This document shows positions 1 to 29,270 of a stretch of DNA of 64,000 nucleotides, in pieces (position 1 is the stretch's first letter; each line of letters opens with the position of its first letter). Origin of the DNA: Parcubacteria group bacterium GW2011_GWD2_42_14 (GTDB lineage: Bacteria; Patescibacteriota; Minisyncoccia; Phycocordibacterales; UBA12088); NCBI GenBank assembly GCA_000998045.1, contig LCCS01000007.1, forward strand, positions 5,220-69,219, given 5' to 3'. The notes under the pieces are model-generated. The model worked only from the letters and a program-made list of their open reading frames with translations. It did not search any database and had not been told where the DNA came from. The position numbers were made by a program, and so were the translations under genes.

Positions 1-3000
1 TTGTTGCCGAAGGTACACTGTTACCGAATGTACCACCAACCGCTACCGAGTTACCGCTCTCCACAGTAAATGAGCTTGCATTTGTTATTGACCAGTTTCC
101 CGTAGAAGTTGCGTTTGTTTGAATTGTCCAACCGCCTGTCGCACTATTGAACGTCACGTGTGCAAACGTATTTTGACCTGTCGAAACTGTTCTGCCCGTA
201 GCTGTGGAGTTAAAGAGTACCGTGCCACCATTACTGTTCCACGTACCCCCAGTTGTTTCAAAACTTCCTCCCACAGTAAATACCCCCGTTGGTAATGTAG
301 AGGTACCTGCTAAGAAGCGGACTGTTCCACTTGCAGTAAGGTTGGTATCGGTAAATGCAAACGAACCACCTTCACCACTTACAATCACATTAAAGAGTGC
401 TGAGCCGTTGGTGCTTATTGTTTCAATAGTTGGTGAAGTAAAGCGAAGTGTTCCACCATTTGCGTTAATTGTACCCCCTGTCGTAACAAGTGATTTCCCA
501 ATCGTGAGTGTTTCTGCTGGATAGGTCAAGGTCCCATTTTGCAGTCGCATTGAACCAGACGACGTCGCATTTTGATCGGTCCATGACCAACTTCCTGTAC
601 CATTTACAGTGACATTGAAGAAGGGTGAATTATTTTGGTACAGCGTTTTCGCACCACTTCCTATAAGCTCAACCGTTCCATTATTATGCACAAATACACC
701 GCCAGAATTTGTAATATTTCCTGAAACCGTTGTGGTGCCAACCGTTAAGGTAAGTGTTCCCGTCGCAACGGTTAGATTTCCACCAATAGTTACCTGGCTT
801 GGTACAAAAGCCCAATTACCACCCACACCGTTCGCGGTAATGTTGTACCAAGCAGATGTTCCAGAATCGATCACATGACCAGTCGTCGTCGCAGAAAAAG
901 TTACCGTACCAGAACGAGAAGAAAAGTTTCCACGATTTACAAAGTCACCAACAACTTCAAGTGCGTAGTTTGTTGCTGAAACATCGAAAGTATTTCCTAT
1001 CTCAATAGTAAGATAGGTAAGCTTTGCTGGTGCACCTAATCGTACTATTTTTGAAGAACCATTTATATGAACCTTACCAAGGTCTTGTTTTGATACCGTC
1101 GAGTCAGTGATAACTCCTACAACTGATCCGTCGAAAGTTGTGGTGCCTATACCTTTCAAGAAAGTCGTGCCATTCGAAAGCGAAAGATTACCCCCGATAT
1201 AGAGACTTGCACTGGACGCATAGAGCGTGCCGTACGCCACACTTACTGATGCTTCAACGTCAAAGATACCGCCGAGCGTAAAGAGTGCAGTACCAGACGT
1301 TTGTCCAAACGTAACCGTGTTGAACGAACTTGCTGATGCTCCTGTTGCATCTACCAACTCATTGGTCGACGTAGCCGTAAATATGACGGTTGAACCCCCA
1401 GCCGTAAAGGTGCCGTTGTTGTCCCATGATCCGGACACATAGAGTGTGTTGTTGTCAGGAGTAATGGTACCGTTTATCTCTACATCATGTGCATAGAGTG
1501 TTCCGGAGTTTGAACTGTCTGGTCGGTAAGCAAAATTACTGCGAACTATAAGCTCTACATCACCGCACGTTCCAGACGCTGATGCACAGACGTACAAATC
1601 ATTACCTATATCTACATCAAAGAACACGTCCTCATCACCTGATACTGAGTAATCGTATAGCCCAATGAGTGCATTTGTGGTAGTAGTTGCATCATCTGAA
1701 CCAAGGGTAAGATGTCGTTCGTATAAAGGAATATTCGTCACATTGCCGACTCCATCATACGCAGTAACTGCAGCAGCTTCACTCGCATCACTTGCTCCAT
1801 CAATGAAGACCATAATTGTGTCTCCAGGGAAAGCAGTAACGTTTGCTATTGACCACGTACCACCTCCGCCAATTGTCCCTGTCTTACCGCTCTGCAATAC
1901 TCCATTAACAGCGACTGCAACAGTTCCTGATGTTACGTTTGTTGTCTGGTCATACTGTTTCGCAGTACCAGATACCGTCACTCCCTCAGACCACGTTACT
2001 GTCCAATCAGAGAGTGTTGGACAATCTCCTGCACTGCACGCAAATGAAGCGTTCACTCGAATAAGGTTGTACGTTGTATATGGCATATTTTCCATAGCCA
2101 CAGGTCCCGTCGTAAACCCTGCAGAATTACCTGCGAGCACTCCATCTGGTACAAGAGTCCACGAGTCACCACTGTCCGTTGAGTACTCTATTTGATAGAG
2201 GATATCTGAAGTTCCAGGTGTTGTATCATTCCACGATAATAGATCCCAACGTGGACCTTCTCCATCATAAAAATTAATTGGGCTGGAAATGACTGAACCT
2301 GAGGTTACCGAAGGGTACTTACGTGCACTCATGTGCATCGGCACGTTTGCGGTTGCAAGTGCTGACACGTTTGTTTCAAGCGTTTGACGGGTCGCCCAAA
2401 CACTTCCATTCCAGTGCGACACATCAATATTGGTATTCGCATCATCCCAAGATGCTACGAGGACCACACCATCTCCCGCCCGTACTGTTTGTACTGCCCA
2501 TGAGTCGGTAAAAGTAGAAAGCGCTGTCTCAGGTTGCAATGTAGCAGTATCCCAATACCGGTAAAATCCTGTAATGGTATCTGTATACGGGAATAGCAAG
2601 TATCCATCACGACCTGATGTCGTCTCATACGTACAGTCAAACGAATGACCTCCGTCTTTGCTATTACTATCAATACTTATCTGCGTCACCGCTCCCCACG
2701 CACTACCAGTCCATCTCGTAAAATAAAGACCATTGTTGTTCGCCACATAACACATCGCAAGATTGTCAGAGCCAACATCTTGAACAATTTTCGGGGTTTC
2801 AAGATCGTCTGCTAACGCGACTGATGAGGTTGCGCTCCAACTTGAACCATTCCATGTACGTGAGTGGAAGTTCGCATTTGTATTGTTAGAAGTGACAAAA
2901 ACCGCGTCACCCCCTGACCCTTCATATGCAATATCCATGCCAATGTTTTCAACATCTGCTGCTTCCATGGCTCCCTGCCTTGTACTATTACCCCAACCGC

Positions 3001-6000
3001 TTCCGTTCCAGACTTGGGCTTCAAAGTCGTACGTGGCTTCAGCAGGGTTTGCTCGTGCAGTCATAATAATCTCGTCAGACTCTGGGTCACTTGCAAGTTC
3101 AATCCATTCACAGTTTTGTGTGGAAGCGAGATTGATGGTCGTTGTCGCAGACCAGCTCACACCGTTCCACACACTATATGTTGCCTCACTTCCCCAACAG
3201 GACACCGCCAAAGCATCACCCGAGTCCGTCTCATAAGCAACATCAAATCCACGTCGCACCGCACTTGCAAGGGTAGCTAAACTTACGGGAGCACTCCATG
3301 TCTGTGTAACTGCAGTGTAGACCTGTGCCTTCACCGCACCACTCACACCACCTGTTACGAGCACATACTCGTCACGAGTAGAAGCAGGTGCAGTTCGAGC
3401 CCAGTACATACGTTCTCCGATATTGCTCGCACTTTTTTCAGTACCCCAACTTGTTCCATTCCACATACGGTATCGCGGTGTCTGCAGTACGCCTTCTGCA
3501 TAAACAAGGAGCACATCTCGAACTACGCTCGTAATACGAGCGGTATCAACACCACTTGCCTCAGTACTATTTAAGGTGTCCGTATCAAGCTGCTCATCAG
3601 TTGTTTGATGCCAAGTGGAACTGGTGACAGCTGTATCAACAGTAAAACTTCGCTGTGGTGACCACACGCTCCAAACATCAGCACCACCTGGGTCACGTGC
3701 ACGCACACGCCACCAGTATGTTGAACCGTTCGTTACCGCATCCCCACTCTGTATAACAAAACGAATAGTGTCACCATCAAAGAACGGCGTTGTATCGGTA
3801 GTCGAGGAGGTATTCGTAAATCCTGCATGGGTGTCCGACGAACGTGTCGTCGAACCAGTGAGGAAGGTCGCGTCAGTTGACCAACTTATTTCATATACCA
3901 AATCATTTGTTTCAGGATCAGTTGAATAAAATGTAAATGAAGGCGTTGTGGTACCAACTTTTTCGTTATCAAACAGAGTTAGTAGAGTGGGTTGTTCCAC
4001 TGCATAACCCCAAGAAAGTGTCCAACTTTGGAGTGAAGGACTTGCACCAGCGTTTGTAAACACGGCAACAATACGCAATTCATTGTAGACCGTAGGATCA
4101 AGACCAAGAAGTGAAACTGATGAGTTATCAAAGCCTGCACTGTTACCTGCCAGAGCCCCGTCCGGAATTAGCTCCCACGTTCCTGCGTTGTTGTACTCTA
4201 GTTTGTATTTGAGATCACTTGCAGTCTCAGTATCACTCCACGAGAGTGACCCCCATGCATTGCCTTGTGTACCCCATTCGTAATCAATTGCCGAACTTGT
4301 TGTCGTACCTGTCGTATTCGGTGGTGTGAGAACAATAGAATCAGTCGAAGTCGCTTCAGTTTGTTCATGGGTGTCGGTATCAAATTGATTGAGAGTTGTT
4401 TGGAACCATGTCGTTTCAGTTACTGATGAGATAGTAAGACTGGTAGAATCTGACCACTCACCCCACTCACCACTTCCGCTTGGGTCCCGTGCACGAACTC
4501 TCCACCAGTATGTCGTACCATTCGATAGAGCTGTGGTTGGAACAAGACGCACATTTTCACCGGCATTAAACGGACTTTTGTCGGAAGGAGTTGTTAAGTT
4601 TGTAAACGCTGTAAAATCATCCGAAGAATTCATGTCAATAATAGTAGAACCAAACGTGATATCATCATCAACCTGTATTTGGTAATGCAAATCATCTAGT
4701 TTTACGTCTTCAGCCACAAACTCAAACCACGGGGTCGTCGATGCAAGTGCCTGGTTATCAAAAGGTGCTTCGTGAAGCGGTTTGGTAGGTGGCGCATTCG
4801 TGATAAGTTGCGGATAGGTGTTGTATGCACTTAATTCTGTTCCGTCTGTATGGATGGCACGGAAACAGTAGTTCGTACTAGAGGTTGCATTGTGCTCAAG
4901 TACAAAATCCCACTCACCCTCATTTCCTGTTGTAATGCCGTTTGGATTTGATACTGCAGGATTACTTTCTTCGTATGATTCTACTGTGTCCGACGTCGAT
5001 AACAAGGTTGAGCTCAAGGTTGTGCCATCTGACACTCCATTATTATGGTACCCGCGCCATGGCTCACTTGAACCAATATCACCAACATCAGTCCAAACCA
5101 TGTCACTGCTACAGGTAACCCCTTCCGCCCATTGCAACTTTACCTCTATTGAAGATGCGCTCAAGCTCACATTCGTGTCGAGGATAGAAAGACGTAATCG
5201 AAGCACTGAACCAAAACTCGGAGCAAACGTTGCCGGAATCGGCGTACTTTCATCAACTGCATCACTTCCTACTGGCCACACATCACTCGGGCTCAGTGAG
5301 TCAACATTCGTATACCAACGATATTTATTCTCACTTAAATACGGCTGTCGCTCCCACGAGAGAGACCAGTCGTCAAGGGTTGGAGTTTGTGCAACTGTTG
5401 ACGTAAGATTTGTTTTAATACAAAGCATGTTATACGTCGATGTAGAAAGGCCTGAAAGATTGAGCGGGCTAGCAGTTGCATCAAATCCTGTGGAGTTACC
5501 CGAAAGGACAGCATCAGGTACGAGCACATTACAAGCTGCTGTGGTTGTTGCGTAGTAGACTTGGAGCGTTGCATTGGTTCCTACAGGTTCAGTCGTATTC
5601 CAAATCACCTCTCCCCACGATGGTTGACCAATAACGAGGTCGAAATCAACAATAGTTGAAACGATACTTCCTACCGAAGCTTGGTATTGCTGTGCGGCGA
5701 TAGAAATAGGTTCATACCATGGCTCAGCGGTTCGTGAAGGATAGTCATCTATGGTTGTCTTTGTCGTCCAACTGCTTCCATCCCAAGCGCTAAAATCATA
5801 GCGCGTGTTTGTGTTGTCGTGAAAAACAGCAAGTATCTTTCCATCTCCGGTACGTGTGGTATTCACGGTCCATGAATCTTCGACAGAACTGATAGATGCG
5901 CCACTATTTACTAAGTACTGCCATACACTTCCTGTAAAGTAGTTGTACTCAGCATTGACTGTATTTGAATATGCCACCAGATGGTACCCATCCCTTCCTG

Positions 6001-9000
6001 CAGTTGTCTCATACTGACATGATATTGGTCTACCATGTGCATCGGCGTCGGCTACACCGACATCCCCTTCAGTATCATGCTCACGATAGGCCCCCCACGT
6101 ATTCGTGGTTCCATTCCAAAAGACCGTCCCCATATCGTCATCTTCATCTATATAACAGAGTGCCATATCATCAGTTCCGTTGTCTGAAGCTACCTGCCCC
6201 CATTCAAAGTCATCACCCAAACCTACCGTGCCACCAGTACCCCACGATGAACCATCCCATGAGTTGTAAGCAAAGTTACCATTCTGACCATTTGAAATAA
6301 CAATAACTGCATTGGTGCCACTCTCTTCATATCCTATAGCAATACCCTCGCGCGCGGCTTCGTCTCCTGCTCCTCCGGTATACGAGCTACCCCAACTTCC
6401 CGCAACCGGGTCATACACCTGCGCTTCATAGTCAGGATTAGCTTGGGCGACATTGGCTCGCGCTACCATAATGAGCTCATCGGAGGATGGGTCTGCTGCC
6501 ATAGCGAGCCACTCGCAATTTTGCGTAAACGTGAGGTCAATAGTCGACGTCGCAGACCATGCTGTTCCATTCCATACCGCGTAGCTTGGGTCTTGATTCC
6601 CATCACAGTAGGCAACCACAGCATTTCCTGATTGCGTTTGATACTGTACATCAAAAGCCTTATACGCTGGACTTCCAACTGTCGGGGTTACCTCCCATAA
6701 GTTTCCCCATGTACCCGTTGTTCCATTATAAATTTGTACATTCACGTCACCCCCCGTATCTTGTGTTGCCAAAATGTACTCATTACGAGTTGTTGCTGCA
6801 CGAAGCGTTGTCCAGCTTATTTGCCCGCCGACACTAAGTGCTGAAGATGATGCGGACCATGCGGTACCATTCCATATGCGATAGTGTGGTGAGGTGTTAG
6901 TGTTTGAACCATATGCCACCATAGCTCCTACAGGCGGTGTTGTTGCAAGACGTACTTTGTTGGCACCATAGGTTTCTGTGCCTGAAAGTGTTCCCTGGTC
7001 AAACTGTGTATCTTCTGTTTGTATCCACGCTTTTGGACTGGTGTTTTCTACATAGGTAAAGCTCAAAATATCACTCCACTCTCCATAAATACCGGATCCA
7101 ATGTCCTTTGCTCGCACGCGCCAATAGTAGGTGGTACCTGTCGTAAGCGCACTTTGCATAGTAAAGCGAATACGATTACCTTCTGTAAAGGGTGAGGTAT
7201 CCCCTCCACTTACAGTATTGGTAAAACAGTTTGGCGAACACCCAGCTTCATTGTCGGAAGTACGGTCCCCAAGTGGAGAGGTTGCGACATCTGCATCATC
7301 ATCCCATTGAATTTCATAGATGATATCGGTTGCTCCGTCTGGATCCAGTGCGCTAAATTCAAAGTATGGCGTACTGCTACCTGTTTTTTCGTTATCAAAG
7401 GGAACATTGTAGAGAATTGGCTCGTCTGCCGGGTAATTACTTGCAGACCAATATCCCGCAAGATAGAAGTTGTCTGCGGCAGTACTCTCGGTGTAGTACT
7501 CTATGGTTGAGCTTGCATCACTTCCCGCGGTAACCATCATCCTTGATGGTGTCACTCCCGTAGAACCTCCCTCAGCTTCATGGAGATCAAGTACTCGTCC
7601 CAAAGAAGAACCGTTTGTGCGAACGCCAAGTTCTATCGCACCGTTTGCATCAGCATTGTTTGCAAACACTACTTCAGCAATCCCTGTAGGGGGAACAGTG
7701 AGATTGTCGAGTCGACGATCTGTCCATGTTGTGTTTGCTGTAGGACCTCCGAGATCACTCCAACTTTCTTTATAGGTCAAACCTGTCGGCATCGTGTCCC
7801 AGTATCCGGACAAAATAAAGTCTACATCGGTACCTATTCCAGGGCCATCATCGTCACTGTATGTTTCCACCCGTGCAGTCGACGTCGTCGCTTGAACAAA
7901 CATCGTGGCATACGTATCTCCACCAGTCTCTGGCTCATGCAAACGTATGTATCTGTTTAATGCTGAACCATCGGTACGTACTCCTGCGAGAAAGTCGGTA
8001 TTAGCTTGATTGTTTACCATCACAATTTCTGCCACATCTCCTTGGGTAAGACCATACGTGTTGAGATCCCAGTTGACCCAAGCATCATCAGTCGTACTTG
8101 GATCAGTGGTATCAAAACGCTCAACATATACACCATCGGTCCAGTACCCAAGGATACGAAACGTGACGAGTGTTGCACTATCTGCGTAGTACTGTATTGA
8201 TGAGCTTGCTGAAGCGGTGACATGTACCGTTACCTCTGACATACCTTCCACACCAGTACCTGTCGTCTCCGCCTCATGGAGCAGGAAGCGTCTATCAAGC
8301 GTGGAAGAGGCATGACGTACTCCAGCATACAGTTCATTTCCATAGTCGGTGTTGATGAGTGCCATTTCAATGACAGCGTTTGCAGGAATATTGTAGGGGG
8401 CACCTGAGAGATCAATTGTAGTCCACGCTCCAGTTGTGCTCGGTGTGATTGAGATAAACTGCTCAACGTATTGTCCAAGGGCATCACTTGCTAGCTTCCA
8501 CGTACGACTCTCAATAAATGCGGTTTGTCCTCCGATACGTATTTCTGCAGGTCCGAGGAGGTAGACATACGGAGAGACATCGGGTGCATCGTACTCATAG
8601 CGAAACACCTGTGTTTCTCCAGCTTGCAATTCAACATTCCACACGAGTCTCTTTGCTCGTCCCCACATGGTCGTTTCAGCATCCCCCGTGTCAATAAGTT
8701 CAAAGTCTATCGGAATCGCTTCGACAACCTCACCGACAAAGTCTGCGGTCGCTGTTACCGCAAGCTCCATCACATATGAAGCTTTGGGCCAAATACGAGT
8801 CGCACCATGTCGTTCTATGATATACGATTGTGACTCAGCGACTTCAAAGGAGTCAGTTATCTGATGTACTACCTCACCGTCTAGGTTTACGTGAGTAAGG
8901 GTAATACCATATTTTCCCACTTCGTGTGGTCGATACCATGCAAGATAGTCAGGATCATCTGTTACATTGTTTGCTCCACAGGTCGGCTGAGGTTCCACCC

Positions 9001-12000
9001 GTATCTCTTCGGCATCCCCTTCGGGGGTGGTAAGGGTGAGTCGTAACTCGGCATCACAAATTGTGTCTCCTTTATCGTCAAGAGCAGCCATGTGGAATTT
9101 GGTCAAATCATCCATCTTATAGACAGACTGTGGTGTATTTATAACTAAAACTCCCCAATAAAAATCAAAACTATCCGAGTATGCAGTTCCTGTTTCGTCT
9201 ACCGTAAGGGCGAGCGTGTACTTTCCTGGTACCAACTCACGAGGCATTTCAAGTATGTGAATCGTCCATTCACCCTCAACGCCATACACGATTTCAAAAT
9301 GTGCGTCTTCAACAAGAGCTCCATCGCGCATAAGGTGCACCTCAGTTACTTGCGCCAACCTGTCTCTAAAAAGACCACTCCAAAAACGTGAAAATTTCCC
9401 TTTCTGGGGGCGGTACTTAAGTGAAAATGTGATGTCCTCCCCTATAGCAAAATCTTTAAGTGCCTCCCGAAAATCATGCAATTGCGGTACCTGAAGATTT
9501 CGTAGGTAGTTGATGTGGTCAAACAGATTTTTTGAAAGAAGTGATTCAAACACACCCACTGCAGGCAGAGGCAGCTCCTCGACAGCACCAAGAGTAGTTG
9601 GGACAACAACCTCTTTGTAGCGAGCCAAACGATACTCGATTCCGCCTTCTGGATATCGTACTTCCTCTACATGCATGTCAGGTGGATAAGAAAGCAACAA
9701 ATCTCGAACGCCTGCAGTCAATTCTTCACCGGAGAGTCGTACCTGCAGTGGTCCTTGTGAAGAGAGTGTTTCTTCACCTCCCTCAACAAGCAATGCTTGT
9801 GATACACCTCGTACGAGAGTGATAGGCTCGTTGTCTCTTGACTGCACACGTGCATTCTCATACTCACTTACAAGAGAGAGTACGGCGCCGTCGGAAGGTT
9901 TTGTAATACCCGCATAGGCAATAGGTTCCGGTGTCAGTTGTGGCGCGAGTAGTCGAGAAGCTGAAGTCACTTGCTCGTTTCCAAAATAGGCAAACAAGGT
10001 TCTCGTGGCGAAAGCTTCTCTCTCAAGCTCGACCATATAGGTAGCAAGCTGGTCAACATATGAGTAGTCTCCTGGCCGTGAAGGAACTTCTTTTCGCGTC
10101 GCTGGGTCATAAAAACGCACATCAGCACCATCAAGAGCAGCCCGCTCAAAAAATTCAGAATGAGTACGGTCTATACGTACCTCATATAGTCCTGGAACAT
10201 CACCGTCAAGTGATTCACCTGCCTCGAAGGTAACGGGCATACGGTAGCCGAAAGCACTGCGCCACCACATACTTCTAGTCGCATCAGCTTCATCACCTTC
10301 AACCTCTACCACAAATTCACCAGCACGTTGTACTTCAAACTCAAGATCAATTGCAAAGTACCTTGTCTCCCTTGGCATAATCCTGAAATCTCTGTCGGCT
10401 TCCTGAATGCTCGTGAGAAGTGTAGGAGTATTCTCTTCTTCGTCATTGCCAAACAGACGGTCAAAAAAACTTGTGGCACTTCTTCCACCGTCAGTGACCT
10501 CAAGTAATGGAATAGGTTCCCACCCATTTTCATACACCATTGTTTCGCTTATGTTTATTCTGTCATTCCCTACGATACAATTGGTCTTGTCTGCATTAAA
10601 TGAATTACATGTTTCTGTTTGTCCTGTTGCTCTACAGGTGTACGTACTCGTAAGTTCAACTTCTGAAGTATCCTCTACGACTTCGGTTTCTTCATTTGGA
10701 TCAGGGGTGAGTACTTCTGTCTCAAGGGTACCGGTTTCTTCTTCTACCAACATTTCATCTCCACCCTCAGGTTCTTCTCCATGTTCACCTTCAACAAGCG
10801 CTTCTGGTTCAGTGCTTGAAATCACTTCTTCCACAGGCTCAAAAGTTTCTTCTGTTTCAGAAATATTTTTGTCTTGAAAATTTTCTATGTCTGCACTATT
10901 TTGACTGAGCTCCAGGTCCCACCCCGCTTCACAAAAATATGCTACCTCGCTATACACTGGTGTGTCATTTGGAGTGGGAACGTTTTTTATTCGTTCCTCT
11001 AAGCGCATCACCTGCGCCTGATGTCCAGTACGTGTAATGAGGCGGAAATTCTCTTCTCGATTACTCATGTTGGTTACCGCAATGTATGCACGTGCGGTAG
11101 TAAGTCCGTTGTACACATCAAAATCACTTCGTAGTACCAACTCGTCCCCAGGCACATACTCCGTAGCGGTAAGCTCGATTCTTTTCTCATTTTCTATGAG
11201 CACATCTGGTCGCCCTGAATCTTCAAGCACCGCAAGCTCGTGCAGAATGTTACTTACTTCAGGCAATGTTTGGTCAACTGATTCAGCCTCATAGGTTGTG
11301 TCTATCCACACACTGTCGACAAACAGTTCAGTACGGACTTCACCCTGTCGCACGTATTCAAGTTCAACGCGAAAATCATTAAGGGCATCCCATGACTGCA
11401 CATTGGGAAGCTGAAATGCAAAGTGACCACCGTTGTCATAGTTGCTTAAAGTTTTATCTAACAATATTTCTCCAGCCACATACCATGCACCACGGTACTG
11501 GTATCGAACCAAAAGCTTGTCAGGAGTAAAACTTTCTCCAAGAGTTTGTGCTGCAAGTGAAATACGAAGCTCGTATCCTTTTACCGTAAAATCAGAAAGT
11601 ACGCTTCCAATATCAAATCCGGTAAATTGGATTGTGTGGCACTCTATTCCCAACACCTGACACACGCGCACGTCCTCCTCTGCTTGAATGATATCGTCTG
11701 TATTCCCCTCCGTATTTTGATTTTCTGAAGTTGCACCTTCTGAAACTTCACCATTTTCAGTTGAATCAACTTCCTCTACACCCTCTACTGGTTCGGTTCC
11801 CTCTTCAGCTTCTCCAGATACTTCTACTGATTCTTCCAAAACAGGTTCCTCTACCGATTCATCTTGAGAACCTACCTCAGTGGTAGACTCACCTGTGTCT
11901 TGTGCACGTGCCGTGTATCCAACAAAACCTCTTGAAACATTAAGGAGATACCTCCCCACAGAAATGTCCGGAAGGGGTAGTATTTCTTCTTCACTATTCT

Positions 12001-12394
12001 CTACCTGGTCTTCTTCAGATTCATTTAGAGGAGCATCATCAGATACTGTTTCAGTTTCTTCAGTCCCGTCTTCTTGTGTATCGTCTGCATTACCCTCTGT
12101 TATTTCTACATCTCCAGTCTCTGGTAACCCAGTATCGAGTATTCCCTCAGGGGTTACAATTACAAATGTGGAATTTGTGCGATTGAAATCATCAAAAATA
12201 GCTTGGGCACCAAGATTTTGTTCCAACGCCAAACCTTCTTTCATCCAACCATCACTTGCAACATTGGTAGGAAAAATATGTATAGTACGCTCTTCATCTG
12301 TAGCAAACACTGCTACGGTTATAGTGAAAATCACAAACAAAGCAACCGCGAGAGATAGCTTGTAACGTTTGAATATTTGAAAGGTAGCGTGCAT
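1..12394 (-). CDS. Giant secreted surface protein, 5' end in window and 3' end beyond window start (>4100 aa). Signal peptide, acidic D/E/T-rich linker, then many FN3-like beta-domains.
   Basis: ATG at 12394 is followed by MHATFQIFKRYKLSLAVALFVIFTITVAVFA-TDEER, a classic signal peptide. The ORF track reports no ORF in this minus frame over 12 kb, consistent with an ORF open to the window edge; all listed minus ORFs here are in another frame and all plus ORFs are low-complexity antisense artefacts. Hand translation of the same frame gives IVTPEGILDTGLPETGDVEITEGNADDTQEDGTEE at ~12150 (acidic linker), CDAELRLTLTTPEGDAEEI at ~9030, TYWWRVRARDPGGADVWSVW at 3662-3721 (FN3-type motif, repeated again near 4440 and 7100), and ESGNSVAVGGTFGNSVPSAT at 2-61 with no stop. 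Confidence 0.55.
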   Translation of the reverse strand, partial: MHATFQIFKRYKLSLAVALFVIFTITVAVFATDEERTIHIFPTNVASDGWMKEGLALEQNLGAQAIFDDFNRTNSTFVIVTPEGILDTGLPETGDVEITEGNADDTQEDGTEETETVSDDAPLNESEEDQVENSEEEILPLPDISVGRYLLNVSRGFVGYTARAQDTGESTTEVGSQDESVEEPVLEESVEVSGEAEEGTEPVEGVEEVDSTENGEVSEGATSENQNTEGNTDDIIQAEEDVRVCQVLGIECHTIQFTGFDIGSVLSDFTVKGYELRISLAAQTLGESFTPDKLLVRYQYRGAWYVAGEILLDKTLSNYDNGGHFAFQLPNVQSWDALNDFRVELEYVRQGEVRTELFVDSVWIDTTYEAESVDQTLPEVSNILHELAVLEDSGRPDVLIENEKRIELTATEYVPGDELVLRSDFDVYNGLTTARAYIAVTNMSNREENFRLITRTGHQAQVMRLEERIKNVPTPNDTPVYSEVAYFCEAGWDLELSQNSADIENFQDKNISETEETFEPVEEVISSTEPEALVEGEHGEEPEGGDEMLVEEETGTLETEVLTPDPNEETEVVEDTSEVELTSTYTCRATGQTETCNSFNADKTNCIVGNDRINISETMVYENGWEPIPLLEVTDGGRSATSFFDRLFGNDEEENTPTLLTSIQEADRDFRIMPRETRYFAIDLEFEVQRAGEFVVEVEGDEADATRSMWWRSAFGYRMPVTFEAGESLDGDVPGLYEVRIDRTHSEFFERAALDGADVRFYDPATRKEVPSRPGDYSYVDQLATYMVELEREAFATRTLFAYFGNEQVTSASRLLAPQLTPEPIAYAGITKPSDGAVLSLVSEYENARVQSRDNEPITLVRGVSQALLVEGGEETLSSQGPLQVRLSGEELTAGVRDLLLSYPPDMHVEEVRYPEGGIEYRLARYKEVVVPTTLGAVEELPLPAVGVFESLLSKNLFDHINYLRNLQVPQLHDFREALKDFAIGEDITFSLKYRPQKGKFSRFWSGLFRDRLAQVTEVHLMRDGALVEDAHFEIVYGVEGEWTIHILEMPRELVPGKYTLALTVDETGTAYSDSFDFYWGVLVINTPQSVYKMDDLTKFHMAALDDKGDTICDAELRLTLTTPEGDAEEIRVEPQPTCGANNVTDDPDYLAWYRPHEVGKYGITLTHVNLDGEVVHQITDSFEVAESQSYIIERHGATRIWPKASYVMELAVTATADFVGEVVEAIPIDFELIDTGDAETTMWGRAKRLVWNVELQAGETQVFRYEYDAPDVSPYVYLLGPAEIRIGGQTAFIESRTWKLASDALGQYVEQFISITPSTTGAWTTIDLSGAPYNIPANAVIEMALINTDYGNELYAGVRHASSTLDRRFLLHEAETTGTGVEGMSEVTVHVTASASSSIQYYADSATLVTFRILGYWTDGVYVERFDTTDPSTTDDAWVNWDLNTYGLTQGDVAEIVMVNNQANTDFLAGVRTDGSALNRYIRLHEPETGGDTYATMFVQATTSTARVETYSDDDGPGIGTDVDFILSGYWDTMPTGLTYKESWSDLGGPTANTTWTDRRLDNLTVPPTGIAEVVFANNADANGAIELGVRTNGSSLGRVLDLHEAEGGSTGVTPSRMMVTAGSDASSTIEYYTESTAADNFYLAGYWSASNYPADEPILYNVPFDNEKTGSSTPYFEFSALDPDGATDIIYEIQWDDDADVATSPLGDRTSDNEAGCSPNCFTNTVSGGDTSPFTEGNRIRFTMQSALTTGTTYYWRVRAKDIGSGIYGEWSDILSFTYVENTSPKAWIQTEDTQFDQGTLSGTETYGANKVRLATTPPVGAMVAYGSNTNTSPHYRIWNGTAWSASSSALSVGGQISWTTLRAATTRNEYILATQDTGGDVNVQIYNGTTGTWGNLWEVTPTVGSPAYKAFDVQYQTQSGNAVVAYCDGNQDPSYAVWNGTAWSATSTIDLTFTQNCEWLAMAADPSSDELIMVARANVAQANPDYEAQVYDPVAGSWGSSYTGGAGDEAAREGIAIGYEESGTNAVIVISNGQNGNFAYNSWDGSSWGTGGTVGLGDDFEWGQVASDNGTDDMALCYIDEDDDMGTVFWNGTTNTWGAYREHDTEGDVGVADADAHGRPISCQYETTAGRDGYHLVAYSNTVNAEYNYFTGSVWQYLVNSGASISSVEDSWTVNTTRTGDGKILAVFHDNTNTRYDFSAWDGSSWTTKTTIDDYPSRTAEPWYEPISIAAQQYQASVGSIVSTIVDFDLVIGQPSWGEVIWNTTEPVGTNATLQVYYATTTAACNVLVPDAVLSGNSTGFDATASPLNLSGLSTSTYNMLCIKTNLTSTVAQTPTLDDWSLSWERQPYLSENKYRWYTNVDSLSPSDVWPVGSDAVDESTPIPATFAPSFGSVLRLRLSILDTNVSLSASSIEVKLQWAEGVTCSSDMVWTDVGDIGSSEPWRGYHNNGVSDGTTLSSTLLSTSDTVESYEESNPAVSNPNGITTGNEGEWDFVLEHNATSSTNYCFRAIHTDGTELSAYNTYPQLITNAPPTKPLHEAPFDNQALASTTPWFEFVAEDVKLDDLHYQIQVDDDITFGSTIIDMNSSDDFTAFTNLTTPSDKSPFNAGENVRLVPTTALSNGTTYWWRVRARDPSGSGEWGEWSDSTSLTISSVTETTWFQTTLNQFDTDTHEQTEATSTDSIVLTPPNTTGTTTSSAIDYEWGTQGNAWGSLSWSDTETASDLKYKLEYNNAGTWELIPDGALAGNSAGFDNSSVSLLGLDPTVYNELRIVAVFTNAGASPSLQSWTLSWGYAVEQPTLLTLFDNEKVGTTTPSFTFYSTDPETNDLVYEISWSTDATFLTGSTTRSSDTHAGFTNTSSTTDTTPFFDGDTIRFVIQSGDAVTNGSTYWWRVRARDPGGADVWSVWSPQRSFTVDTAVTSSTWHQTTDEQLDTDTLNSTEASGVDTARITSVVRDVLLVYAEGVLQTPRYRMWNGTSWGTEKSASNIGERMYWARTAPASTRDEYVLVTGGVSGAVKAQVYTAVTQTWSAPVSLATLASAVRRGFDVAYETDSGDALAVSCWGSEATYSVWNGVSWSATTTINLASTQNCEWIELASDPESDEIIMTARANPAEATYDFEAQVWNGSGWGNSTRQGAMEAADVENIGMDIAYEGSGGDAVFVTSNNTNANFHSRTWNGSSWSATSSVALADDLETPKIVQDVGSDNLAMCYVANNNGLYFTRWTGSAWGAVTQISIDSNSKDGGHSFDCTYETTSGRDGYLLFPYTDTITGFYRYWDTATLQPETALSTFTDSWAVQTVRAGDGVVLVASWDDANTNIDVSHWNGSVWATRQTLETNVSALATANVPMHMSARKYPSVTSGSVISSPINFYDGEGPRWDLLSWNDTTPGTSDILYQIEYSTDSGDSWTLVPDGVLAGNSAGFTTGPVAMENMPYTTYNLIRVNASFACSAGDCPTLSDWTVTWSEGVTVSGTAKQYDQTTNVTSGTVAVAVNGVLQSGKTGTIGGGGTWSIANVTAFPGDTIMVFIDGASDASEAAAVTAYDGVGNVTNIPLYERHLTLGSDDATTTTNALIGLYDYSVSGDEDVFFDVDIGNDLYVCASASGTCGDVELIVRSNFAYRPDSSNSGTLYAHDVEINGTITPDNNTLYVSGSWDNNGTFTAGGSTVIFTATSTNELVDATGASASSFNTVTFGQTSGTALFTLGGIFDVEASVSVAYGTLYASSASLYIGGNLSLSNGTTFLKGIGTTTFDGSVVGVITDSTVSKQDLGKVHINGSSKIVRLGAPAKLTYLTIEIGNTFDVSATNYALEVVGDFVNRGNFSSRSGTVTFSATTTGHVIDSGTSAWYNITANGVGGNWAFVPSQVTIGGNLTVATGTLTLTVGTTTVSGNITNSGGVFVHNNGTVELIGSGAKTLYQNNSPFFNVTVNGTGSWSWTDQNATSSGSMRLQNGTLTYPAETLTIGKSLVTTGGTINANGGTLRFTSPTIETISTNGSALFNVIVSGEGGSFAFTDTNLTASGTVRFLAGTSTLPTGVFTVGGSFETTGGTWNSNGGTVLFNSTATGRTVSTGQNTFAHVTFNSATGGWTIQTNATSTGNWSITNASSFTVESGNSVAVGGTFGNSVPSAT

Positions 12395-12811
12395 CAAAAT
12401 ACCAAAAGAGCCCCAACTCATGGGAACATCTAGGTCATATACATTATTGCACAAAAATGGCTTAAAATATCTAAAAAAGTCATATATAACGCCATATACT
12501 GTGGATAGCATTTACAATTTTAAACAAAACTCACCCCGCATTTTAGGCTCTGGGTAGAAAAGCCTCTACACGTTCGTACAATCGTTTGTAGTAGAAGTAT
12601 TTTTCGATCAGCTCTCCCCCCGTGCAATAAGAGTACCCGCACTCATGACTGATACCATAGTGTGTCCAGTTTACGTAGATCCACATGTATGCAAGTTTCG
12701 CAATAGAGTATCGCAAAAAGCAAGGGTACTTTTTCTCATAACCCATAGTCTTATCACCTTACCACACACCTTGGCGTCGACGTCGGTGTATACCTGTTGT
12801 GCCGAACATTT

Positions 12812-12986
12812 GGACCCACATAAGCGGATGCAGTTCGAGGCGCACAGGCAAAATACTGCGAGGCGTACAGCAGTACGATGAGTAGTATTTTGTGTAGTGC
12901 AACAAAGAAATGCGACCAATTTTTCTTATGAGCTTTGCGAATTAGAAAAATGAAGTACTCTTGTGGTGCGCCGTTTATGTGGGTCC
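12812..12986. repeat. Structured intergenic element, copy A (long form, ~175 nt). Outer inverted repeat GGACCCACATAAGCGG / CCGTTTATGTGGGTCC. Conserved core GGATGCAGTTCGAGGCGC...CAAAATACT...AGTATTTTGTG plus a ~55-nt AT-rich insert.
   Basis: Same core as the copies at 22774, 24337, 24557 and 56816. The outer stem differs from the other copies but stays complementary within the copy. It lies 5 nt after the stop of the cohesin-like gene at 12991. Confidence 0.6.
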
Positions 12987-12990
12987 AAAC

Positions 12991-14469
12991 CTACTTGAGG
13001 AGCTTGCGAACATCCTCCACCTCCTTATCAATAAGTTCTTCAGAAATATCCAATGCGTCTTTAAGTCCTTCGAGAATTGTTCTCTCCGTATCAGTCATGT
13101 TGGGTTTGTGCGATAGCTCAAGCACCTTCTCCTCAATTTCATCTCTAAGGACTCCAAAAATATTAATAAGTCTGTCTCCAACCTCAGCTGTTTCTCTTTT
13201 AATATGATCTTTTTCTTCATGAAAACGACGTCGCTCTTGAATTAACATCGTAATAACGATTGCAAGCGCACCCATAAAGAGAAGTGATACCCAATATATA
13301 GCCCCGAAGCCACTCTCCTTAATAGCATTTGGGTCCACCTCTTCAACCTTGGTTCCCGTTACAGTAACGGGGGCCTCGGCTGAGCGTTCATTGCCAGCGA
13401 AGTCGACAGCTGTAACACCTATCGTATGGTCTCCCGGATCCAAGTTGGTAATCGTATACCCGCCTGAGACTAGCTCGTTGGGCTGAACATCGCGTGGACT
13501 TTCTCCGTCTATCACAACACGATACAGTTCTACACCCGAAAGCGAGTCTTGTGCTTCAAATCGTATTTGTGCCGTTAAGTCTCCACCTACTGCAGTTACC
13601 CCAAACTCATCTGGTGGTGTGGTGTCAATTTGCAGTTTGTACGAAGTTGAACTTCCCCACCCTCCTCGATTTAAGTATTCCGCAGTGAAGTACCACGTAC
13701 CGTCCGTTATCCCCGTTTTACTCCATTCACCTACGGGCGGTTCATGTTTCTCAGTCGACGTCGCATCAGGAACATCTCCAAACGCAAACCGAACTCCAAG
13801 AACCCCATAGGGAATATCCCACGTGAATTTCGCATCTGATTTGTTATACCACACACCCTGTTCTGGATGCGTAGGACTTGAGATATCAGGAGCATCCGGT
13901 GGTGGGATTTTGGTATTTCTTTCTTGTGTAGGGGTGGTGGGCGGAGTAACTGGATCAGGTGGCTTGGCTGAAGCAGGGGTGACAGTAAATGTCGCTCCCG
14001 CAGAACCCGAAAGTACGTCCTGCCCTGCACCCGCAAGTAGGGTGGATTTTGTAAATTCAACTTTAGCAGAACCTTCTGCTTTTGCCTTAAAGGTAATGGT
14101 TGCGACTGCTTTTGAGCCAGAAATAGCCGTTGTACCACCTCCAGAAAACGTAATAGTCCCACCACTTATTTTTGGTTCAACTACCCAAAGATTAAAAGGT
14201 GAACCCTCTTTTGATACTGATACAGCGGTAAGCTTGCTCGTGTCGTAGGTAATAGTCGCTTCACCCGTGTTGACCGCATCAGTACCCGCATTGACCATGA
14301 CCTTTACAGCAAAAGTTTTACCAACCTCGAAACTGCCGTCTGCTGGTGAGAGTAGGTAGCTTGCAGCCAGAGAAACCTGTGGCACAGTGAGGCCGACAAG
14401 CGAACACATAAAAAACAGAAAGAAGAGTTTCTGTCTAAAATTTGGTAATGTGAAAAAAGCCTCGCTCAT
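12991..14469 (-). CDS. Membrane-anchored surface protein. Signal peptide, cohesin-like domain, Pro-rich linker, Ig/FN3-like domains, C-terminal TM helix and a charged coiled-coil tail.
   Basis: Likely start is MSEAFFTLPNFRQKLFFLFFMCSLVGLTVPQVSLAAS at 14469; the track ORF extends to 14529 and overlaps the Hsp20 gene. The segment VGKTFAVKVMVNAGTDAVNTGEATITYDTSKLTAVSV...ATITFKAKAEGSAKVEFT matches the cohesin fold pattern. It is followed by PPDPVTPPTTPTQ and a C-terminal TM (GFGAIYWVSLLFMGALAIVITML) plus a K/E-rich tail. Confidence 0.5.
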   Translation of the reverse strand: MSEAFFTLPNFRQKLFFLFFMCSLVGLTVPQVSLAASYLLSPADGSFEVGKTFAVKVMVNAGTDAVNTGEATITYDTSKLTAVSVSKEGSPFNLWVVEPKISGGTITFSGGGTTAISGSKAVATITFKAKAEGSAKVEFTKSTLLAGAGQDVLSGSAGATFTVTPASAKPPDPVTPPTTPTQERNTKIPPPDAPDISSPTHPEQGVWYNKSDAKFTWDIPYGVLGVRFAFGDVPDATSTEKHEPPVGEWSKTGITDGTWYFTAEYLNRGGWGSSTSYKLQIDTTPPDEFGVTAVGGDLTAQIRFEAQDSLSGVELYRVVIDGESPRDVQPNELVSGGYTITNLDPGDHTIGVTAVDFAGNERSAEAPVTVTGTKVEEVDPNAIKESGFGAIYWVSLLFMGALAIVITMLIQERRRFHEEKDHIKRETAEVGDRLINIFGVLRDEIEEKVLELSHKPNMTDTERTILEGLKDALDISEELIDKEVEDVRKLLK

Positions 14470-14494
14470 GCTCAATGTTTGCGAGCGAGGAATC

Positions 14495-14992
14495 TTATTG
14501 TAGACCCTGCGCTCCGTGATCGTCTGCACGTACTACATTCAAACGAAGTCCTTTCCCTTGCTTACCAATGAGTGGCAAACGTAGTGCCAATACGCCATCT
14601 TTTGTTTTTGCCTCTGCTCGTTCAGGATCTATCTCATCCGGAAGAATTATTTGTCTGTAAAAATCCCCCCAATGGCATTCCTCGAGAGTAAAATCACCAT
14701 TTTGTGAGGCGTGTGATTCGTGCATGAGCTGTTCTGGACGAAGGGCCGAACCTTGAATACTTACCACGTCGTTGTCTCCTGCAATAGAAACGTCCAAGGT
14801 CTGCATATCCATACCTGCAAGTTGTGCATAGATGACTATTTCTGTATCAGATTGAAACACATCGACAGGAAGCTGAAGTGCGTGACCAGGAAGTACTGGC
14901 TGTGAACTTTTAGCTGACGCTGAGGCATCTACAAGCTGGCCTTCTTTGTCAACAAGACCTTTCCCTTTTAGTTTATCCATAAAAGTACCCAT
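14495..14992 (-). CDS. Hsp20/alpha-crystallin family small heat-shock protein
   Basis: Alpha-crystallin domain VDVFQSDTEIVIYAQLAGMDMQTLDVSIAGDNDVVSIQGS ... GDFYRQIILPDEIDPERAEAKTKDGVLALRLP. Confidence 0.8.
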   Translation of the reverse strand: MGTFMDKLKGKGLVDKEGQLVDASASAKSSQPVLPGHALQLPVDVFQSDTEIVIYAQLAGMDMQTLDVSIAGDNDVVSIQGSALRPEQLMHESHASQNGDFTLEECHWGDFYRQIILPDEIDPERAEAKTKDGVLALRLPLIGKQGKGLRLNVVRADDHGAQGLQ

Positions 14993-17214: not shown

Positions 17215-17222
17215 GTATCTAC

Positions 17223-18055
17223 TTATTTGCTCTCAACTGACACAACACATCTGAATCCCAATGCATCACCATTAAAGGTTTCGGGACTTGCCGCATAGGT
17301 AGCATATAACCCTGCATCATCATAGTTATTGAAATAGCCTCCACGCATAATTCCCGCCTCAATGTTTGAGTCTGTCCAAAATCTATCATTAAAATAATTT
17401 GCACTTTTTTCTGTCCCAGTCGTATATGCCAGACAAACCCTGATTCGGGAAGAATGGAGTTTTGATACATACCGAGAGCAACCGTACCTTCTACCCACTC
17501 CCACACGTTTCCTATCATATCGTATGCACCCGCAGATGAAATGCATCGCGTTCCACTGCCTGTTTCAGAAACTCCCTCTGCCCTGTTGTGTGCAACATTG
17601 CAATCTTCTTCGTTCCAGCCACTCGCCTCATCGGGTGTGCCAAACGCTGCAACAAACCATTCGTTAGGTGTCGGTAGTCGTTTACCCGCTTGTGCGCACG
17701 CGCGCTCTGCAAGCTCTCGCGTTACATGTCTCCATGGTATACGCTCTTTTCTAGCAACAGGTATACACGTAGTGTTTGAAAGGTTAAACATTGATTCATC
17801 GATATTTTTGGGATCTTGATAGAAGCACGCCTCATGTGCAGACACCTCGTACACATCAATACAGAAAGGATTAAGTGTTTTTGAGATGTACACCATATTG
17901 TCAGGACATGAACCCTGAAATGGTCGCGTAGAAAACAGCAAACCACCAAGTAACGTGTGGTACTGGTCGCGAAAGTCAAAAGCATTCACAGCAAGTGTGG
18001 CGAGAAGCGTTGAACCCACAACGACCGCTATGGTCTTTGCCAGATTTCTAAGCAT
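17223..18055 (-). pseudogene. FGE-sulfatase (SUMF1/EgtB/PvdO) family protein, frameshifted at an A6/T6 homopolymer
   Basis: ORF 17219..18055 carries a signal/TM and the hallmark GAYDMIGNVWEWVEG. The C-terminal hallmark RGGYFNN...GDALGFRCV is in the -1 frame (ORF 17223..17546). The two frames overlap around T6 at ~17405-17410 (minus-strand cagAAAAAAgtg); one extra A would give a single ~277-aa protein. Confidence 0.55.
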
Positions 18056-19804: not shown

Positions 19805-20260
19805 CTAGAATACTGGCGTAGCAATGTAGGTAAGTGTAGCAGTGTAATCTTTTGCAGCTTCCTGTAGATTGCTAATCTCAACTTTGTAAGCTACGGTCGT
19901 TGTACCAACTCCCATACCACCAGACTGTAATGCAGGTAGAGGGTGATAAAACACTTCTACAGGATTGTTTATGAAGTTACCAACATACGCCGCCTGTGCA
20001 TTTCCCCACAGACTCGGTACGGTACTTGAACTCACTACGTTGTCGTCAGAGGTAAGTCCCCAGTGACCATAGGTATCAATCGAACCAAGCACTGGTGTAG
20101 GACCATCCCATAAGGTACTTGAGGCAATACCTCCTGCATCTGGTCCGTTAACAAACGGATTAATCGTCGCGCCGTTTCCTGATGTAAGCGTTTGGTCTGC
20201 AAACACGGTAACGCTGAAGCCGTTAAGTGCGTTTGTGTCAACTCGAAGTTGCTGTGCCAT
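19805..20260 (-). CDS. WxL-like C-terminal domain fragment (contains HWGL and a terminal YTATLTYIATPVF motif). Likely the 3' part of a single gene together with 20371..20973.
   Basis: Upstream of the ATG the frame stays open (…FGISIKGVAGGVSVNDDVTTTF…) back to 20401. A 1-nt shift within 20374-20401 would fuse it to the upstream ORF, which ends …VTVTASVSL*. Confidence 0.45.
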   Translation of the reverse strand: MAQQLRVDTNALNGFSVTVFADQTLTSGNGATINPFVNGPDAGGIASSTLWDGPTPVLGSIDTYGHWGLTSDDNVVSSSTVPSLWGNAQAAYVGNFINNPVEVFYHPLPALQSGGMGVGTTTVAYKVEISNLQEAAKDYTATLTYIATPVF

Positions 20261-20370
20261 AAGTTTCGCTGTATCAGGAGCAATGATACCGAAAGGAACT
20301 GTAGTTGCTGTAGAAGAAGCAAAGGTGGTAGTGACGTCATCGTTGACACTAACACCTCCTGCAACTCCCT

Positions 20371-20973
20371 TTATAGAGATACCGAAGCGGTAACAGTAAC
20401 ATCATCAATAACTGCAATACGAGTATCTCCTGAATCAGTCATCGTTCCTCCAAGACGTATCACGTATGAATCGGCTGTTGCAGGGTTCGCAATGAAGTTT
20501 GTAACTCCCGCAACAATTTGTACAACGGTGCCGGCAGTAATGCTGTCAGTTGGACATACGGTAAGTTCAATAAAATCAGCAGTGTCATCTACATCACTCG
20601 CGTACATCTCACTCGCGGCTCCAGTACAGTTTCCAACAGCAGCGACTTCGGTGATAGTACCGCCTGAAACAGCTGAAATATTGATATCACCAAGAGCAAG
20701 ACCTGTCAGGTCAAACTCTTGACCATCTGGATCAAAAGTAACACGTAGTGTTTCCGATGCAGCTATGGCATTTACTAACTCAAACTGTAATGTGTGCGTG
20801 GCATCTAAACCTATATCTGAATCTGATAATGTGTCGCTAAACTCAACAACGTTGTCTGCGTTTGCGTTATGAATCATGGCAGGCAAGCCTAAACTCCATG
20901 CAAGCAATGCGACAATAGTCGCTAGAGCGATAGTTCTATAGTGCATTGGAAATGCGAATGCTATATTTTTCAT
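20371..20973 (-). CDS. Secreted protein N-terminal part (signal peptide MKNIAFAFPMHYRTIALATIVALLAWSLGLPAMIHNANA). Probable 5' part of the split WxL-like gene.
   Basis: Signal peptide followed by a beta-rich T/D/G/V domain; ends 28 nt inside the open upstream extension of 19805..20260. Confidence 0.45.
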   Translation of the reverse strand: MKNIAFAFPMHYRTIALATIVALLAWSLGLPAMIHNANADNVVEFSDTLSDSDIGLDATHTLQFELVNAIAASETLRVTFDPDGQEFDLTGLALGDINISAVSGGTITEVAAVGNCTGAASEMYASDVDDTADFIELTVCPTDSITAGTVVQIVAGVTNFIANPATADSYVIRLGGTMTDSGDTRIAVIDDVTVTASVSL

Positions 20974-21276
20974 GCGTGATTGTTAATAATAATTAATAAA
21001 AAGGGCTGACTAATGTATAGCTAAAAAACCTATACGTACGGATGTACATATAACAGCAATGGTGAAATGGTGAGCGAATACAATCCGCCAACTACATTCA
21101 ATAATGATTATACATGGTATATAGCTTTTAAATGTAATAATACTGTGGATAACACGACGTAAATTTTAAATTTACAATTTGAAATTTGAAATTTGAAAAC
21201 AGCGCTGCACTCTTCTCTACAACGAATTGAAGGAAGAGAAATATAAAACCATCCACAAATTAACCATTGAAATTTT

Positions 21277-21345
21277 TTCGTCTTTGCGAGTCGAAACGAA
21301 GCAAACCATATATGGATCGCTTTGTTGCGACTCGCGATGACAATC
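21277..21345. repeat. Repeat copy 1: CGTCTTTGCGAGTCGAAACGAAGCAAACCA...GCGACTCGC (hairpin GCGAGTCG/CGACTCGC)
   Basis: Near-identical 30-mer plus inverted partner also at 25271-25335. Confidence 0.4.
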
Positions 21346-21418
21346 CTACTGGTTAGTTGTTGCTTGTATAAGCAATACTTTCCGAGCAGTTATTTGAATC
21401 TTTTATTTCCCCAATACA

Positions 21419-24556: not shown

Positions 24557-24678
24557 GGACTTACATAAATGGATGCAGTTCGAGGCGCCCAAACAAAATG
24601 GAACGAGTTGTATGAACAATACTACGAGAGACATTTTGTGTAGGACAACGATGAAATGCGCCGTTTCCGTAAGTCCTA
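24557..24678. repeat. Structured intergenic element copy D (short form). Outer inverted repeat GGACTTACATAAATGG / CCGTTTCCGTAAGTCCT. Its 3' end overlaps the TAG stop of gene 24676..25230.
   Basis: Core ATGCAGTTCGAGGCGCCCAAACAAAATGGAACGAG...GACATTTTGTGTAGGACAACGATGAAATGCGCCG. Confidence 0.6.
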
Positions 24679-29221: not shown

Positions 29222-29270
29222 GTATTAACTCAGAACTCGTCACTCGTCACTCGCTTTACTCTTATTTAGA
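29222..29270. repeat. ACTCG-repeat cluster (GAACTCGTCACTCGTCACTCGCTTTACTC) just 3' of the giant gene stop. Preceded by an ACTAGTA-repeat/near-palindrome ACTAGTATACATACTAGT (~29185-29215).
   Basis: Shares the ACTCGCTTTACTC core with 15141-15200 (reverse complement) and 63497-63523. Confidence 0.35.

Follow-up and report, generated by a model that had tools for sequence, protein, structure and literature searches.

The window analysed here is a 64,000-nucleotide (nt) stretch of contig LCCS01000007.1 (positions 5,220 to 69,219) from Parcubacteria group bacterium GW2011_GWD2_42_14, and it opens with the N-terminal part of a giant gene on the minus strand. Starting from the ATG at 12394, the reading frame remains open down to nt 2, with 4131 codons and 0 stops; the other five frames across the same 2..12394 stretch contain 107 to 359 stops each. 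The composition-based chance of a stop-free frame of 4131 codons is about 1e-105. A first-pass annotation of this DNA, made without database searches, had proposed a protein of more than 4100 amino acids (aa) running off the window, and had named an in-frame stop inside the window as the finding that would speak against it. Translation yielded no such stop and left the frame open at base 2, in agreement with that proposal. The longest alternative open reading frame (ORF) in the stretch has 221 aa and, therefore, the plus-strand ORFs are antisense shadows of the repeated Y[YW]WRVRA modules. The giant gene continues past window base 1 and, judging from its relatives, about 2600 further residues are expected. 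Our results show that the gene is real and conserved, and that it encodes a giant, Sec-targeted beta-protein of modular build, in which FN3-like spacers accompany two predicted 8-bladed propellers.

The module order was obtained by chunked self-comparison and module-by-module phmmer, and homologue searches used three sub-regions of the giant protein as queries. L-numbers designate loci from a genome scan and P-numbers designate database proteins. The window part of the gene is organised as follows:

2..12394 (-): giant ORF, N-terminal 4131 codons; no in-frame stop, collinear with the L003 ortholog at 53% identity
12299..12394 (-): Sec-type signal peptide or signal anchor, aa 1-32; the only hydropathy peak in the protein
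12140..12298 (-): N1, conserved non-acidic membrane-adjacent segment, aa 33-85; 60% identity to L003
11660..12139 (-): acidic low-complexity linker 1, aa 86-245; 32% D+E, net charge -47
10883..11659 (-): globular domain N2, aa 246-504; also in P0001, P0002, P0008 and P0020, 59% identity to L003, without a Pfam match
10625..10882 (-): acidic linker 2, aa 505-590; 34% D+E
8477..10624 (-): domains N3-N6, aa 591-1306; DUF2341-like at about aa 700-830, MG/Ig-like block at aa 1001-1306
7442..8476 (-): T block of three tandem repeats of about 115 aa, aa 1307-1651; self-matches E 5e-16 and 6e-11
6998..7441 (-): FN3-like module F1, aa 1652-1799; YYWRVRA at nt 7129, beta-sandwich with a predicted local distance difference test score (pLDDT) of 77-95 in model 1
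5675..6997 (-): predicted 8-bladed beta-propeller P1, aa 1800-2240; eight W/Y-x-G-x-x-W motifs about 50 aa apart
5297..5674 (-): small beta-sandwich X1, aa 2241-2366; self-repeat, pLDDT 88-97 in model 1
4808..5296 (-): module Y, aa 2367-2529; also in the second giant ORF of the window, poorly modelled
4325..4807 (-): FN3-like module F2, aa 2530-2690; YWWRVRA at nt 4510, PF25788, pLDDT about 90
4007..4324 (-): beta-sandwich X2, aa 2691-2796; self-repeat, model 2
3578..4006 (-): FN3-like module F3, aa 2797-2939; YWWRVRA at nt 3718, then a literal WSVWS
2315..3577 (-): predicted beta-propeller P2, aa 2940-3360; 49% identity to P1 over 162 aa
1928..2314 (-): beta-sandwich X3, aa 3361-3489; from self-comparison and phmmer
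2..1927 (-): domain Z, then the start of a G/T/S-rich array of repeats of about 76 aa, aa 3490-4131; self-repeats E 6e-23

Searching Pfam with the whole 4131 aa returned only PF25788 (Ig_Rha78A_N), on F2; there was no NCBIfam match and no PDB sequence match at E<=1. With single modules at E<=10, Pfam gave only sub-threshold matches to Filamin, PF16656 and PF25788. The assignment of N3-N6 is based on phmmer links to the DUF2341-bearing proteins P0002 and P0026, together with sub-threshold Filamin and MG2 matches. The T block recurs in many library proteins, and no Pfam family was found on that block in the giant protein or its relatives. The repeat array was placed at aa 3821-4131 and beyond; its sequence pattern suggests a beta-helix-like structure. 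Homologs of the Z/array region were found in P0034-P0043, and the array goes on in complete relatives.

At the N-terminus, a hydropathy scan detected the sole hydrophobic segment of the 4131 aa at aa 10-32 (KLSLAVALFVIFTITVAVFA). It shows the features of a signal, with K9, R10 and K12 in the n-region and a 19-aa hydrophobic core followed by VFA|TDEE. The same start and an [SVA]FA motif followed by acidic residues are also present in P0001, L003, L005 and P0045. The signal proposed at the ATG by the first-pass annotation was thus recovered as an N-terminal signal or anchor. Because this segment is the only hydrophobic one both in the window protein and in the complete relatives (save a weak internal peak in L052), the giant protein is clearly predicted to be Sec-exported. 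Cleavage could occur at VFA|T; alternatively, the segment could be retained as the sole membrane anchor, a core of this length being also compatible with an uncleaved anchor. A pilin-type N-terminus was considered for the giant protein and rejected, as it lacks a G|F-x-x-x-E motif such as that of P0016. Regarding the acidic stretch of about 250 residues expected right after the signal, an acidic linker does exist, but aa 33-85 are non-acidic, the linker spans aa 86-245, and a second one lies at aa 505-590. Linker 1 is broken by a 19-aa non-acidic island and is poorly conserved, with 25-33% identity to L003 and gaps relative to orthologs.

We located exactly three copies of the Y[YW]WRVRA motif, at aa 1756, 2629 and 2893 (nt 7129, 4510 and 3718). 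These positions agree with the earlier ones of about 7100 and 3700, while the third, given as near 4440, was about 70 nt off. The modules F1, F2 and F3, of about 140 aa each, match one another with E-values of 2.6e-30, 6.5e-28 and 7.5e-31 and 38-44% identity. With mutual E-values from 6.5e-28 to 7.5e-31, chance is excluded and the module repeat is real. On F2 (aa 2570-2653), PF25788 scored 39.9 bits against a curated cut-off of 27.4, and the same family also matched the orthologs L003 and L046; F1 gave sub-threshold matches to PF16656 and PF25788. The FN3 family itself, PF00041, was absent from the whole protein at E<=1 and from F1 alone at E<=10.

We modelled aa 2367-2799 (model 2) from a shallow alignment, in which module Y was poorly modelled and F2 and X2 reached a pLDDT of about 90. 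The top 30 Foldseek matches of this model comprised EpoR, IL-4R alpha, contactin FN1-FN3, the leptin receptor and gp130, with E-values from 5e-7 to 1e-4 and low template modelling (TM) scores (0.2-0.36), whole multi-domain chains having been compared. A profile built from 45 orthologous Y-F-X-F blocks gave weak matches (E 0.005-0.5) to the FN3 domains of gp130 and the leptin receptor on YWWRVRA...WSxWS, that to gp130 being the one at E 0.005. Of the three modules, F3 carries YWWRVRA...VWSVWS; F1 and F2 have only GEWS. Given the PF25788 match above cut-off and the match of the model to tandem FN3 domains, the FN3-type label in the first-pass annotation holds at the fold level as modelled (39.9 bits for PF25788; E 5e-7 for tandem FN3), but not as a Pfam PF00041 assignment. 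As a description of the body of the protein it was incomplete: the three modules are present, but they account for only about 450 of the 4131 residues, and the dominant propellers, the X sandwiches, the triple repeat and the repeat array had been missed.

In fold, F2-X2 is best matched by the FN3 domains of contactins and of several class I cytokine receptors, namely EpoR, IL-4R alpha, gp130 and the leptin receptor. The family profile aligns YWWRVRA...WSxWS with the region of the F and G strands in the gp130 and leptin-receptor domains. In comparison with these domains, the modules of the giant protein measure about 140 aa rather than about 100, which implies an insertion. The likeness to cytokine receptors is one of fold only, with sequence E-values of just 0.005-0.5, and not one of family membership or function.

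The first propeller and the modules on either side of it were addressed with an AlphaFold2 model of aa 1650-2370 (model 1), computed from a 27-row alignment, with a mean pLDDT of 84.7 and a predicted TM-score of 0.71. In this model, two beta-sandwiches flank a large all-beta domain with about 31 strands. Foldseek against the PDB ranked the Photorhabdus PLL/PHL lectins first (E of about 1e-10, TM-score 0.69 target-normalised), followed by Kelch domains, fucose lectins and sialidases. The eight W/Y-x-G-x-x-W motifs spaced by about 50 aa and the fold matches together predict that P1 and P2 are 8-bladed beta-propellers, P2 presenting seven clear blade motifs and one degenerate. Neither a PDB sequence match at E<=1 nor a Pfam family at E<=10 was found for the propeller, and the predicted fold by itself assigns no function. 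Structural-alignment identity to PLL/PHL from Photorhabdus and to the BP39L/CV39L lectins is only 10-13%; moreover, those lectins have seven blades, judging by their chain lengths, in contrast to the eight motifs of the window propeller, which is best matched by 8-bladed propellers. Among orthologs, identity is 46-52% in the propellers versus 60-71% in the flanking F modules, and lowest in the linkers (25-33%).

The Saccharimonadales protein P0016, named 'type II secretion system protein' in its source, belongs with P1 and P2 to a common WNGxxW propeller family (30% identity, phmmer E 2.5e-29). In P0016, a protein of 562 aa, the propeller is joined to an N-terminus resembling that of type IV pilins, whereas the window protein carries two copies inside a giant, predicted Sec-exported chain. 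P0016, P0010 and P0015, each about 560 aa long and encoded by Saccharimonadales or their relatives, all link a type IV pilin-like N-terminus (G|FSPVE...) to a WNGxxW propeller. Proteins of this type would be candidates for a pilus-borne adhesin.

In order to find relatives of the giant protein, we scanned one genome per species for the pattern of the F-P-X alignment and recovered 75 loci, nearly all of them from Patescibacteria (Parcubacteria, Paceibacteria, Kaiserbacteria, Minisyncoccia and others). Collinear giant ORFs are present in 45 or more Patescibacteria genomes and measure 4481-7456 aa when complete. Ten of them are complete within the fetched DNA (4481-6241 aa), and at more than 30 other loci the ORF runs off the locus after 3000-6800 codons. 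In L003, aa 13-4186 align with aa 1-4131 of the window protein in one alignment (53% identity), and the ORF extends beyond 6076 aa; P0045 (7456 aa) shares three collinear blocks with the window protein. In an exhaustive search among cluster representatives, 1826 passed E<=1e-3 and 375 passed E<=1e-30; full-length proteins of 6513-7456 aa are among them. These sequence comparisons place the giant protein in a widespread, unnamed Patescibacteria family that many public genomes already contain without annotation, defined here by L003, L005, L028, L030, L046, L052 and P0045. In L028, L030, L046, L052 and P0045, about 2600 aa follow the position that matches the end of the window, for which reason a full length of about 6700 aa is expected, the window holding the N-terminal 60% or so.

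The closest locus is that of Parcubacteria group bacterium GW2011_GWA2_43_11 (L038), where the cassette is 84% identical and the neighbouring cohesin and HSP20 genes are 93% and 96% identical to those of the window. Its giant gene is about 80% identical up to aa 2451, where a DUF2341 insertion occurs (L038 9978-10932) and identity falls to 54%. P0045 has two DUF2341/LamG insertions (aa 2506-2845 and 4405-4747) at similar module junctions, and the window protein has none of them. Such insertions at junctions suggest recombination or module shuffling within the family. We also observed a second giant ORF in the window (29266-39267, minus strand, 3333 aa), with an N-terminal hydrophobic segment, seven DUF7483 stretches and one DUF7361. 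As module Y (32% identity over 227 aa) is all that the two giant ORFs have in common, we rejected the second as a paralog of the first.

The first-pass annotation had suggested a C-terminal dockerin or sorting signal beyond the window. The complete relatives have neither a dockerin nor a C-terminal hydrophobic segment. Dockerin_1 (PF00404) was absent from the 4131 aa of the window, the last 2700 aa of L028, L030 and L046, the L003 protein and the N-terminal part of L046. Pfam detected only DUF2341 in the C-terminal parts of the complete relatives, about 700 aa before the end, and no RTX, SLH or enzyme family in their C-terminal 2700 aa. Instead, the last 150 aa or so form a conserved cysteine-containing domain (...QKYATSTFTYSGC...YWGI.VP.G...), present in nine complete relatives and in P0045. 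The C-terminus of the relatives therefore argues against the dockerin or sorting-signal guess and also against a polymorphic-toxin tip.

Cohesin and dockerin proteins are encoded at the locus, not as parts of the giant protein but by separate genes immediately upstream of it:

12991..14529 (-): type I membrane protein with cohesin domain at aa 68-175, 512 aa; PF00963 E 9e-11, hydrophobic aa 406-424 and a charged tail
14495..14992 (-): HSP20 small heat-shock protein, 165 aa, without signal; PF00011
15346..17214 (-): secreted protein with a C-terminal type I dockerin, 622 aa; PF00404

The order is dockerin, HSP20, cohesin and giant gene. Homologs of the three genes were found upstream, similarly arranged and on the same strand, in 27, 43 and 45 fetched loci, respectively, the count of 27 for dockerin being lowered partly by the 10-kb flank limit of the fetched loci; in 45 loci the cohesin gene is the immediate upstream neighbour of the giant gene. 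In about ten genomes, the cluster is itself preceded by an FGE-sulfatase-like gene (17219-18055). Searches of the open-access literature gave no paper on a cohesin-HSP20-dockerin cluster in Parcubacteria, and nothing relevant on dockerin or DUF2341 in the candidate phyla radiation (CPR).

The 596-nt gap separating the giant gene from the cohesin gene upstream gave nothing above shuffle expectation in a promoter/terminator scan. Within it we read by eye a putative small ORF of about 67 aa (MGYEKKYPCFLRYS...) at about 12543-12746 on the minus strand. Right after the cohesin stop, and some 415 nt upstream of the giant-gene ATG, lies a 181-nt element (12809-12989) with 19-nt inverted repeats at its ends (95% complementary). 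Its minus-strand RNA folds at -60.3 kcal/mol (z = -5.5), and nucleotide homology to the closest relative ends exactly at its edge. It had no Rfam match, and the repeat motif was absent from all 77 related loci. It may be an insertion resembling a miniature inverted-repeat transposable element, or a lineage-specific structured RNA or terminator. Elsewhere in the window, a 55-nt stretch (24582-24636) is 96% identical to intergenic positions 2143-2197 of L038 and may be a short dispersed repeat. Downstream of the complete giant homolog in L021, positions 20258-21796 encode a protein of 512 aa whose N-terminus is hydrophobic. It carries several FN3-like repeats (e.g. TTYHFRVLSSDASGN) and may be another surface protein of the cluster.

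One could ask whether the dockerin, HSP20, cohesin and giant genes encode one undescribed machine for surface display. In such a machine, the giant protein, anchorless if its signal is cleaved, would be tethered to the cell by the cohesin membrane protein, with N1 or the C-terminal domain, both conserved, as the point of contact. HSP20 would maintain the 6700-aa chain in an export-competent state, and the two propellers would act as host-recognition heads of episymbionts. We regard this complete scheme as speculative and rather unlikely. The phylum-wide neighbourhood is the most interesting by-product of the analysis, and might define a display system.

Regarding the giant protein itself, we consider it probable that it is an exported, modular, beta-rich surface protein of a CPR bacterium, a member of a collinear giant family acting as a host-attachment adhesin. 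The N-terminal segment gives way to two disordered acidic linkers and a long series of beta-sandwich spacers; these bear the two predicted propellers and lead on to the long repeat array. As a fibrillar adhesin, the protein would extend outwards from the small cell. The acidic linkers would serve as extended, cell-repelling tethers and the FN3-like and X sandwiches as rigid spacers, while the propellers, the C-terminal DUF2341/LamG-type domains and the conserved terminal domain would bind host surface structures, probably glycans. The cohesin protein, the dockerin protein and HSP20 probably act with the giant protein in surface display or folding. We favour an adhesin because of the pilin-propeller fusions, the lower conservation of the propellers, the mosaic structure of close relatives and the earlier adhesin reading of Parcubacteria proteins (PMC4508563). 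Several points weigh against this role as adhesin or host-recognition fibre. If the signal is cleaved, the sequence offers no explanation for retention on the cell. For most of its length, the protein matches nothing in Pfam, NCBIfam or, by sequence, the PDB, and the C-terminal 2600 aa or so of this gene are known only through relatives. Finally, the closest relatives, L001 and L038, carry frame breaks in the giant gene: a deletion of about 57 aa with frame change in L001 (4204-4273, at aa 1240-1296), and two frame changes plus an internal stop in L038 (3838-3854 and 10221).

These breaks could stem from misassembly of short-read contigs rich in repeats or reflect genuine decay, and they raise the possibility that the long frame belongs to a decaying or misassembled gene that is not expressed as one protein. 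We find this highly improbable: the window copy runs for 12.4 kb without stop or frame change, in more than 30 other genomes the frame continues unbroken for 3400-6800 codons, ortholog identity is spread over all modules, and the breaks fall in repeat-rich sequence of short-read contigs from metagenome-assembled genomes. One could also argue that a protein which is exported, beta-rich, acidic and highly repetitive, and whose gene shows the phylum-wide conservation of a housekeeping envelope gene, is a structural component of a surface layer (S-layer) or sheath that coats the cell and does not bind a partner. Nevertheless, S-layer proteins that form lattices are generally far smaller than about 6700 aa, neither the window part nor the complete relatives yielded an SLH or other wall-binding module, and the mosaic module order among close relatives is more typical of variable surface adhesins, which makes this role improbable. 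The giant size, the N-terminal signal and the long, possibly beta-helical array towards the C-terminus would also suit an attack protein, secreted or contact-dependent, whose role is to deliver a toxic or lytic activity. CdiA, polymorphic toxins and the giant proteins of Omnitrophota, for which cell-wall degradation has been proposed, would be comparable, and a preprint links the giant genes of Omnitrophota to predation (bioRxiv 10.1101/2023.11.21.568195). Yet searches of the 4131 aa and of the remainder of the complete relatives yielded no family of hydrolases, peptidases, nucleases or toxins, and the C-terminal 150 aa or so are conserved across distant relatives, which is the opposite of CdiA/Rhs-type toxins; an attack function is very doubtful. 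All three alternatives are less well supported than an adhesin.

Parcubacteria and the rest of the CPR make up a large share of bacterial diversity and are thought to live attached to other cells. Here, a gene of about 20 kb takes up around 2% of a genome of about 1 Mb and is collinear in dozens of genomes; given this size and collinearity, it is a strong candidate for an attachment or host-recognition apparatus. By comparison with RTX/type I-secreted adhesins of the LapA or SiiE type, there is no RTX in the C-terminal 2700 aa of the relatives, and an N-terminal Sec-type signal is found instead.

Ebh and the SasG-type proteins are fibrillar giant adhesins of monoderm bacteria. So are Giant1-5 of Apilactobacillus kunkeei (PMC12863079), in which, likewise, a signal at the N-terminus is combined with tandem beta-sandwich spacers spanning thousands of residues and with presumed binding domains far from the cell. 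We detected no sequence relationship with the monoderm adhesins, and the complete relatives lack an LPXTG or other C-terminal wall anchor; the candidates for binding are, in our case, the predicted 8-bladed propellers and the DUF2341/LamG-type domains. The Omnitrophota giants (bioRxiv 10.1101/2023.11.21.568195) are also encoded by giant genes in ultra-small, host-dependent, uncultivated bacteria, and the repeat array of about 76 aa has relatives in the Omnitrophica protein P0040. They belong, however, to a different phylum, and neither the window part of our protein nor its complete relatives yielded domains that degrade cell walls.

The nearest precedent comes from Parcubacteria (OD1) themselves, for which unique large beta-sheet proteins with internal repeats, of more than 1500 aa and 'indicative of adhesins', were reported in the context of an ectosymbiont (Nelson & Stegen 2015, PMC4508563). 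The giant protein shares with them the phylum-level group, the large, beta-rich and repetitive character and the adhesin reading. That report gives a one-line description without domain map, family definition or synteny, and the window protein is about four times that size. To this the present analysis adds, for the family, a domain map, an expected full length and a conserved gene neighbourhood. A giant beta-rich, adhesin-like class having been noted in Parcubacteria in 2015, the finding extends the known biology of these bacteria and does not change it.

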